Positions 63,253-63,895 of a DNA stretch of 64,000 bases are shown piece after piece. Position numbers and translations under genes: made by a program. Source of the DNA: a bacterium (GTDB lineage: Bacteria; Patescibacteriota; Minisyncoccia; UBA6257; JAGOQP01). Where the stretch lies: assembly GCA_021812345.1 (NCBI GenBank), contig JAKANP010000002.1, positions 6,394 to 70,393 on the forward strand, written 5' to 3'. Within the stretch, counting starts at the first letter, position 1; every line of letters starts with the position of its first letter. The notes under the pieces were generated by a model. The model saw only the letters and a program-made list of their open reading frames with translations. It was not told the origin of the DNA and searched no databases.

Positions 63253-63895
63253 TGATTAATTATACCACCAAAAACGATCAATATTAATAAATAAATTATT
63301 TTAATATTAATACGAGATTATTTTGCTTTTTGTTTTTAATTAATTTTTAATTTTACAACAATCAGAATCATATGCATTGTCTGATTGTCTAAGTTCAACT
63401 TGGACGATAACTCAATTTGAACAATCCCTTGCCGGACTTTTTCATCTTATTTTTGATTGCCAATCCCTTGCCGGACTTTAATGTTTTATGCTCATAAACA
63501 TTTTTTAATTGAAAGTTTAAATAAAAGACATCAAAAAAAGCTAGTAACCATGCCGAAAGTGAGTTTCCGCATAAAACCTAGCGTTTTCAAAAAATAGTCA
63601 AAATAGCGTGAAACATTCGTTTTTTGAAAAAAGTCATCTACCGCTTGGTTACTAGCTTTTTTAAAATTGTTTCACAAAAATGTTTCACGTGAAACATTTT
63701 GAACCATATTTTGATGGTCAAATGTGAGATAAAATGTTTCACGTGAAACATTTTATTCAAAATGAATCCGGCAAATTAACATTCTCCTTGCCGGACTCCT
63801 TGCCGGACTATATTGTTTCACGTGAAACATTTTTTACCAAAAAAGTCCGGCAATTAAAGTTTAAAAAACAAACATTATCGTATATAATGATATTT

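Follow-up and report, generated by a model that had tools for sequence, protein, structure and literature searches.

A probable origin-proximal parS cluster interleaved with an iteron-like candidate binding motif in a Patescibacteria chromosome

The 64,000-nt stretch of DNA analysed here (the window; positions 6,394 to 70,393 of contig JAKANP010000002.1) is a Patescibacteria sequence of low GC content (~37%), and the element in question is a 644-bp divergent spacer at positions 63253-63896, 29% GC, which separates an arfB-like gene on the left from yraN on the right and carries three palindromes together with copies of a GC-rich word of about 10 bp, hereafter the companion motif. The window is identical to contig DAIERY010000001.1 (metagenome-assembled genome GCA_027346585.1), and the closest relatives by DnaA are labelled Candidatus Paceibacterota. 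Around the origin we read ~93 kb of contiguous sequence, made up of the window and stitched flanks that extend it by 10 kb to the left and to 10 kb beyond dnaA; positions beyond 64000 are window-equivalent coordinates on this extended contig. To the right of the spacer, yraN is followed by yebC, ruvC and a PBP gene, then by dnaN (68603-69724, 4.8 kb right of the palindrome cluster) and dnaA (69892-71271, 7.4 kb right of it), with rnpA-yidC-jag beyond. From position 1 the cumulative GC skew declines steadily, bottoms out at 60.1 kb and runs level as far as ~71 kb, which places the palindromes within the minimum zone; the skew cannot place the origin more finely than ~10 kb, and it tracks gene strand over 60-72 kb. 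The original prediction, a reading of the window's letters, had called the spacer noncoding, and its only open reading frames indeed encode 34, 40 and 46 amino acids, none reaching 60. The features of the spacer and its flanks are as follows.

62830 to 63252, minus strand: left flanking gene, ArfB-like with an RF-1 domain (GGQ), 140 amino acids, from a domain match
63259 to 63287, minus strand: promoter-like site TTAATA-17-TATAAT for the arfB-like gene, from a promoter search
63429 to 63438, minus strand: companion motif AGTCCGGCAA, inside a 19-nt direct repeat CAATCCCTTGCCGGACTTT (63422-63440)
63468 to 63477, minus strand: companion motif, likewise within the 19-nt direct repeat, here its second copy (63461-63479)
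63534 to 63663, unstranded: A6-hairpin-T6 element with outer 17-bp arms at 63534-63550 and 63647-63663
63607 to 63615, minus strand: parS half-site, reading CGTGAAACA on the plus strand, inside the long hairpin element
63668 to 63675, plus strand: parS half-site TGTTTCAC, 13 nt before parS1
63681 to 63696, unstranded: parS1, exact consensus, in a 24-bp perfect palindrome (63677-63700)
63735 to 63750, unstranded: parS2, exact consensus, in a 28-bp perfect palindrome (63729-63756), 54 nt after parS1
63765 to 63774, plus strand: companion motif matching at 9 of 10 positions, AATCCGGCAA, between parS2 and parS3, forming an inverted pair with the next two copies
63788 to 63797, minus strand: companion motif, exact, first of a tandem pair with a 12-nt period
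63800 to 63809, minus strand: companion motif, second of the tandem pair, ending 4 nt before parS3
63814 to 63829, unstranded: parS3, exact consensus, palindrome of 16 bp only, 79 nt after parS2
63844 to 63853, plus strand: exact companion motif, 14 nt past parS3 and immediately before the yraN -35-like hexamer
63860 to 63888, plus strand: promoter-like site TTTAAA-17-TATAAT, candidate yraN promoter, 9 nt before the yraN ATG
63897 to 64000, plus strand: right flanking gene yraN (UPF0102), 5' part in the window, from a domain match

The 16-bp core of all three palindromes is an exact consensus parS, TGTTTCACGTGAAACA, present in three exact copies (63681, 63735 and 63814) against 0.04 expected by chance, and no further copy with up to two mismatches was found in the window or in the whole 93 kb. 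The idealised ParB site is a 16-bp inverted repeat with the consensus TGTTNCACGTGAAACA, and parS sites lie nearly always near oriC (Jalal et al., 10.1101/724823). All three sites match the published consensus, TGTTTCAC-GTGAAACA, at 16 of 16 positions, and the same 16-mer string recurs in 27 papers on ParB and parS. Because of this exact match and of the position near dnaA, dnaN and the GC-skew minimum, the three palindromes are, with little room for doubt, an origin-proximal cluster of consensus parS sites, which in itself is an ordinary and well-known type of element. The original prediction had left the palindrome unidentified and had missed that it is the canonical ParB-binding site beside a replication origin; three perfect palindromes are real, whereas the span of 22-24 bp given for them is corrected to 24, 28 and 16 bp, the third (63814-63829) falling short of 22. 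The half-site noted with them was found, and there are two (63668-63675 and 63607-63615).

Relatives were gathered by a DnaA-based scan of species-representative genomes, with one metagenome match and two yraN-based look-ups. In six related species (L007, L008, L009, L152, L216 and L217), two or three exact parS copies sit directly upstream of yraN, and the distances between neighbouring sites compare as follows.

This genome: parS1-parS2 54 nt, parS2-parS3 79 nt
L007: parS1-parS2 54 nt, parS2-parS3 82 nt
L216: parS1-parS2 53 nt, parS2-parS3 79 nt

In L008, L009, L152 and L217 the left neighbour gene of the spacer differs while parS stays beside yraN, and the cluster therefore travels with yraN and not with arfB. 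The order of elements, namely motif cluster, hairpin, parS, motif pair and parS, is the same in L152, L216, L007 and this genome, and the relatives also carry a TATAAT 8-15 nt before the yraN ATG. As a separate observation, an unusually dense array occurs in L028 (Candidatus Liptonbacteria, MHLG01000017.1) at 1852-2330, ~8 kb from dnaA, where eight parS sites (seven exact, one with a single mismatch) fall within about 460-480 bp that hold no companion decamer.

The companion motif is strongly enriched: the decamer CTTGCCGGAC occurs in seven exact copies in the window against 0.08 expected, and the word, best written AGTCCGGCAA(G) with a length of 10-11 bp, is present in the spacer in five exact AGTCCGGCAA copies and one copy matching at 9 of 10 positions. 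Eleven of the 12 copies of GTCCGGCAA in the 93 kb lie at three loci, namely the parS spacer, yraN and the DNA encoding the linker of a helix-turn-helix (HTH) protein at 42087-43007. The enrichment reported by the original prediction stands, its count less so, as the spacer holds four exact decamers (63428, 63467, 63787 and 63799) and not five: the copy listed as reverse, at 63845-63854, matches the decamer at only 9 of 10 positions and is an exact AGTCCGGCAA at 63844-63853, and a further 9-of-10 decamer copy at 63765-63774 had gone unlisted. Two copies placed elsewhere in the window do not qualify, the one claimed at 43190 corresponding to an 8-of-10 match at 43195 and the one at 33911 sharing only GCCGGAC.

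Inverted pairs of the motif lie between parS2 and parS3 and across parS3, and tandem copies follow each other at periods of 11-13 nt, about one helical turn, both here and in L009, L152, L210, L211 and L217. Motif positions relative to parS are kept in L007, L152 and L216, and L009 has eight copies beside its parS sites, in a module that occurs twice, 406 bp apart, each time with one parS and two motif copies in each orientation. Variant words take the place of the motif in two species. In L008, TTCCGGAA stands on both sides of a DnaA box in yraN and once in the spacer, where ATCCGGCAAA occurs twice; in L217, GTGGCAA and GTGGAAA occur in five copies each (0.6 expected for GTGGCAA), forming a two-forward, two-reverse block with 11-nt periods between the parS sites and recurring around the yraN DnaA box. 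The arm sequences of the motif are strictly conserved and do not covary, which, together with the variant words at both loci within one genome, fits a trans-acting sequence-specific binder and not a structure-only hairpin or a selfish repeat. Judged by these patterns, the balance tips slightly towards the motif being an iteron-like protein-binding site, and the earlier suggestion of an iteron or operator array was a reasonable one for the decamer, given the 11-13-nt tandem spacing, the positions kept in relatives and the concerted variants. A scan of metagenomes for AGTCCGGCAA-N1-30-TTGCCGGACT returned 120 stretches, nearly all of them single unrelated hairpins or terminators from diverse organisms, with L152 the only true relative; inverted pairs of the motif alone are therefore not diagnostic. 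A literature search found nothing relevant on the motif.

Just past the window end, a perfect DnaA box, TTATCCACA, lies within yraN with motif copies on both sides. The yraN continuation at 64081-64124 (9130-9172 of L001) reads TGTGGAAAA-G-AGTCCGGCAAG-TTATCCACA-CC-TTGCCGGACT, where two DnaA boxes and two motif copies, each pair inverted, are interleaved. This genome, L007, L009 and L152 all share an unaltered composite AGTCCGGCAAG-TTATCCACA, and it sits in an insertion of yraN (peptide SPASYPH; EKSPASYPHLAGL over 64081-64124) that is missing from distant YraN proteins.

The third locus is the HTH gene, which has a DnaA box of its own upstream.

42087 to 43007, minus strand: HTH gene, 306 amino acids, encoding in this order a four-helix bundle, a disordered linker and a winged HTH, from Pfam and a structure model
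43085 to 43093, plus strand: DnaA box TTATCCACA without mismatch, part of AAGTTATCCACA, 86 nt upstream of the HTH gene

In the structure model of the HTH protein, the N-terminal four-helix bundle is confident and resembles PDB 2gsc, the linker (residues 136-238) is disordered with a predicted local distance difference test score (pLDDT) below 50, and the C-terminal winged helix is again confident, with a Pfam HTH_DeoR match at residues 246-293 (E = 3.8e-8). A fold search with this model gave only generic winged-helix matches (best E = 3e-3) and the 2gsc-like bundle, none of them an informative functional relative. We also considered and rejected a DeoR-family regulator: the HTH_DeoR match is shared with such regulators, but the HTH is C-terminal here, the N-domain is a four-helix bundle, and there is no effector domain, in particular no sugar-phosphate-binding C-domain.

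In the coding DNA of the linker (42314-42515), AGTCCGGCAA occurs four times exactly and twice as a near copy, in two frames and always on the coding strand; as CTTGCCGGAC, the exact copies in the gene lie at 42313, 42364 and 42505 and the near copies at 42336, 42397 and 42438. One word is thereby read in two ways, AGT CCG GCA A giving SPA and GAG TCC GGC AA(A/T) giving ESG(K/N), and in an alignment of 20 homologs the ends are conserved while the linker is hypervariable and rich in SPA and ESGK/ESGN peptides. We compared eight HTH genes at the DNA level, this one and seven fetched homologs, which span 33-100% amino acid identity and 36-61% GC. In every one of them, no repeated word outranks AGTCCGGCAA or its core 8-mer, one to seven exact 10-mers plus near copies are present, each exact copy lies on the coding strand, and both frames are used. 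Protein sequences extend the pattern: VRQ in a homolog on the same contig as the L152-type yraN implies a third frame, SLA/VWQ in distant homologs would be consistent with the variant AGTCTGGCAA, and at least three such tripeptides occur in 47 of 52 homologs. The peptide ESGKSPA is the translation of the 11-nt-period tandem dimer found beside parS in L009. Because the same DNA word is read in two frames across eight genes, with a third implied by proteins, the word is, on these comparisons, conserved as nucleic acid and not as peptide. The connection that the original prediction drew between the decamer and the HTH gene is real and stronger than proposed, as it holds at the DNA level, in two frames, in eight homologous genes, with a third frame implied by protein sequences. 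Its suggestion that the spacer contains decayed fragments of an HTH paralog is rejected: compared with the HTH gene by blastn and tblastn, the spacer shares no more than 18 nt of DNA and gives a best tblastn E of 0.1, and the motif positions are conserved across species.

A DnaA box upstream of the HTH gene is present in four of four species, perfect in L210 and L211 and with one mismatch in L209, which suggests DnaA-linked control of the gene. The HTH linkers of L209 and L214, both distant homologs, contain TTTCCGGA four times (TTCCGGAA three or four times) besides AGTC(C/T)GGCAA, and it is TTCCGGAA that stands on both sides of the DnaA box in L008 yraN; two related site types may coexist.

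Two further observations concern the surroundings of the HTH gene. In the closest relative, L212 (1003-10915, compared with 42087-49657 of the window), the HTH gene and the neighbouring 1936-aa gene lie ~8 kb from glyS, and in this genome glyS is across dnaA from the HTH gene (by comparison with L208, 20145-20858), which points to an inversion across the origin that left the HTH gene origin-proximal. The 710-nt spacer at 41377-42086 (minus strand), between the HTH gene and a 1085-aa gene at 38119-41376, has blocks kept in four of four species, for example gctgatgcgtcctcaccgatgaagcagtgggtcgata just upstream of the next gene and gtgaggcggaac with a hairpin-like pair, cctcac...gtgagg followed by a T-run; it is a candidate leader or noncoding RNA and has no Rfam match.

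Between the left motif copies and parS1 lies the A6-hairpin-T6 element. The 17-bp inverted repeat described earlier is genuine, and its arms extend to 44 nt at 77% complementarity; the smaller hairpins are present as well, although the sequence given for them in fact reads AATGTTTTATGCTCATAAACATT and is imperfect. The whole element, 63534-63663, is an inverted duplication of a conserved block, ...CACCTAYSGC-N5-7-TACTAGCTTTTT, and its inner unit (63534-63590) is homologous to hairpins of 55-60 nt at the same position in relatives, the equivalent in L152, L216 and L217 being a compact hairpin of ~55 nt flanked by A and T runs. The hairpin is far more stable than shuffled sequence (z from -3.6 to -10; with T6, z = -5.7 here and -6.8 in L152 and L217), and in an alignment of six sequences 79% of cells pair in register, a share that drops to 28-57% once the partner is slid. 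Both strands fold, and neither is favoured consistently; a preference sought from G.U pairs was discarded, as these point to the plus strand in L152 and to the minus strand here and in L216 and L217. The element is a conserved palindrome that could work at the DNA level, as a bidirectional terminator or insulator, or as the end of a small RNA. At gathering thresholds, Rfam matched only tRNAs in the whole window, and at E up to 10 it added only spurious microRNA hits on the palindromes.

Taking these observations together, we consider it reasonably probable, from the sequence patterns, that the spacer combines a parS centromere with iteron-like sites for a sequence-specific factor, for which the HTH protein is a candidate. 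By analogy with established ParABS biology, ParB dimers would nucleate on the three parS sites, load there and spread as CTP-dependent clamps, thereby assembling the partition complex and bringing in SMC; the cognate ParB is assumed. The companion motif would serve as an iteron-like recognition site for a sequence-specific DNA-binding protein. The protein with the four-helix bundle and winged HTH at 42087-43007 is the prime candidate for this role, a tentative assignment that we regard as possible but doubtful, and it might co-occupy or modulate the neighbourhood of ParB-parS and the DnaA boxes and the divergent arfB/yraN promoters. More speculatively still in scope, and with the odds against it, the locus could belong to an undescribed DNA-binding system of the Paceibacteria origin region, in which AGTC(C/T)GGCAA occurs in the linker of the binder's own gene (in up to three frames), at parS and around the yraN DnaA box, the protein acting as an accessory factor that couples ParB-parS, DnaA and its own expression, with a specificity that co-evolves with its sites (variants TTTCCGGAAA and GTGGCAA).

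Several results weigh against this interpretation. A profile built from seven ParBs and a search for GERRxRA detected no ParB homolog, either in the ~93 kb of contiguous origin sequence or in the Patescibacteria loci that were fetched. At about 50 of about 55 Patescibacteria dnaA loci (L010-L065), no parS with up to two mismatches lies within 10 kb, and none of the ~55 loci encodes ParB there; the yraN-parS arrangement is therefore clade-specific, and the placement or presence of parS appears patchy across Patescibacteria. The motif array inside its gene is the sole ground for naming the HTH protein as the binder, and the single orientation of all gene-internal copies is also what an RNA-level signal or slippage expansion would produce. 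For the hairpin, six sequences yielded only two compensatory pairs, no better than shuffles. Finally, the DnaA boxes with up to one mismatch in the 5' part of yraN (63938, 64081 and 64102) form the densest cluster in the 93 kb, so that the spacer region could be part of the origin itself and not merely its neighbour.

That last idea, in which the DnaA boxes, the decamers and the AT-rich left end (63253-63370) act as initiator and unwinding elements of oriC with parS embedded among them, draws on the position in the flat GC-skew minimum at 60-71 kb, on the box cluster that adjoins the spacer, on the composite AGTCCGGCAAG-TTATCCACA kept across four species, on an AT content of 82-87% in the first 120 nt of the spacer and on genes that point away from the spacer on both sides. 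We nevertheless judge it unlikely. Adjacency to dnaA, usual though not universal for oriC, is not seen here, as dnaA is 7.4 kb away with an AT-rich spacer of its own: 71272-71639 (1614-1981 of L001), 369 bp and 78% AT, facing rnpA-yidC-jag and holding ATATCCACA, TTATTCACA and other DnaA-box-like sites, a classical origin-type spacer that is the default oriC candidate. The three yraN boxes lie in coding sequence, where the one at 63938 encodes a conserved ACGYLV peptide and may be incidental, the spacer itself contains no DnaA box, and the skew follows gene strand at a resolution of ~10 kb. An RNA-based account, in line with the sRNA gene that the original prediction had listed among its options, in which the spacer encodes a small RNA ending at 63534-63663 whose CUUGCCGGACU pairs with AGUCCGGCAAG in the HTH mRNA as an antisense regulator, would explain the single orientation of the HTH-gene copies; an 18-nt perfect match (63425-63442 with 42503-42520) lies on the same DNA strand, so that a plus-strand spacer RNA would be complementary to the minus-strand HTH mRNA, and the stable hairpin with its T6 holds its position in six species. 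Such an RNA seems quite unlikely to us, as the spacer copies of the motif occur in both orientations and as inverted pairs, the plus strand has no acceptable sigma-70-like promoter upstream, no Rfam family matches, covariation does not exceed shuffles and the better-folding strand varies between species; in L217 a tRNA gene on the hairpin's strand precedes it by ~165 nt, and the hairpin could be the terminator of that gene.

The decamer could also be a selfish or neutral short repeat, either like repetitive extragenic palindromic (REP) sequences or miniature inverted-repeat transposable elements (MITEs) or simply slippage-prone, that is tolerated without a trans-acting partner. The highly variable linker length among homologs fits the expansion and contraction of a unit, the yraN copy lies in an insertion missing from distant YraN proteins, and another GC-rich repeat family does occupy spacers of this genome. 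A dispersed repeat, however, would hardly be confined to three loci in 93 kb, keep its positions relative to parS and the DnaA box across species, persist as the same linker word down to 33% amino acid identity and over 36-61% GC, and change to variant motifs at both the spacer and yraN within one genome; terminal repeats or target duplications are not visible either, and we hold this explanation very unlikely. Least probable of all, and only a slim chance, is that the palindromes are operators of an ordinary transcription factor for the divergent arfB-like and yraN-yebC-ruvC genes, unrelated to partition. They do lie between two divergent promoter-like elements, and no ParB gene was found in the ~93 kb examined, but a 16-of-16 match to the ParB consensus, three times here and in six other species, is unexpected for an unrelated factor, the place beside dnaA-dnaN is the hallmark location of parS, and parS stays with yraN in L008, L009, L152 and L217, where the left neighbour differs.

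Set against known systems, the preferred combination of a parS centromere and iteron-like sites shares with the ParABS centromeres of B. subtilis (Spo0J-parS) and C. crescentus (ParB-parS) the 16-bp consensus and the clustering of copies a few kb from dnaA/oriC; here, by contrast, a single spacer holds three sites in 150 bp, a second conserved motif and a hairpin element are set among them, and no cognate ParB was found in the 93 kb around the origin. Iteron-type plasmid centromeres, such as R1 parC-ParR with its 11-bp repeats and the systems with the winged-helix binders TubR (on tubC) and pNOB8 AspA, resemble the companion motif in having short repeats about one helical turn apart in tandem and inverted blocks, with a winged-helix protein as candidate binder, and AspA is among the fold matches of the HTH model. 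Unlike them, the motif described here is chromosomal and coexists with canonical parS, a ParM, TubZ or ParA partner was not identified, and the HTH protein has a four-helix-bundle N-domain and a long disordered linker. A binder's site within its own gene has a precedent in B. subtilis, where a parS site reportedly lies inside the spo0J (parB) coding sequence (Lin & Grossman 1998); the HTH genes differ in carrying an array of two to seven sites, in two to three frames, in a disordered linker and across the family, with binding proposed from the array only.

In Firmicutes, RacA-ram and Noc with its Noc-binding sites (NBS) are examples of accessory proteins whose sites organise the origin-proximal region alongside ParB-parS, and the companion motif is likewise a second family of GC-containing, partly palindromic sites near a ParB-parS system. 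Their sequences are unrelated to it (ram is TGACGCCGGCGTCA; NBS is TATTTCCCGGGAAATA), ram and NBS sites are spread over hundreds of kb whereas those found here are packed by parS and in the gene of the candidate binder, and no homolog of RacA or Noc is indicated here. Rickettsia palindromic elements, which are selfish, 100-150 bp long, dispersed genome-wide and inserted in frame in coding genes, offer a parallel for a DNA repeat translated in different frames and for an insertion in a permissive loop (yraN), but the motif is 10 bp long, is restricted to three origin-region loci and is conserved in position across species.

To our knowledge, next to nothing has been established about how members of the Candidate Phyla Radiation replicate and segregate their chromosomes, and the literature searched held nothing on parS or ParB in Patescibacteria or this radiation. 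As far as the searchable literature goes, the composite of parS, a clade-conserved word, a bracketed DnaA box and linker overprinting appears undescribed. The perfect and conserved parS cluster is a concrete starting point for work on a Paceibacteria centromere and origin. The 10-bp word is the more unusual result, as it is shared by the linker DNA of a protein family, the parS neighbourhood and the DnaA-box composite; it matches a candidate DNA-binding protein to putative sites in organisms that have not been cultivated, a pairing open to testing, and, if the pairing is true, would clearly exemplify cis-regulatory information written over the coding DNA of a disordered region.

Two minor observations concern other repeated or mobile DNA. 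A separate GC-rich repeat, GACTTCGCTCAGGACAAGC, with a 25-nt tandem period, occurs at three unrelated loci (37794-37862, 60539-60582 and 28554-28572), two of which lie in gaps between open reading frames of at least 100 amino acids; it gives 'FDFAQDKL'-type peptides in spurious open reading frames and, unlike the decamer, behaves as a dispersed REP-type repeat. About 6-9 kb past the left window end, in another assembly of the same species (L207, 17315-20021), a large serine recombinase (Resolvase/Recombinase/Zn_ribbon_recom) lies beside several small HTH_3-type genes and may mark an integrated mobile element.

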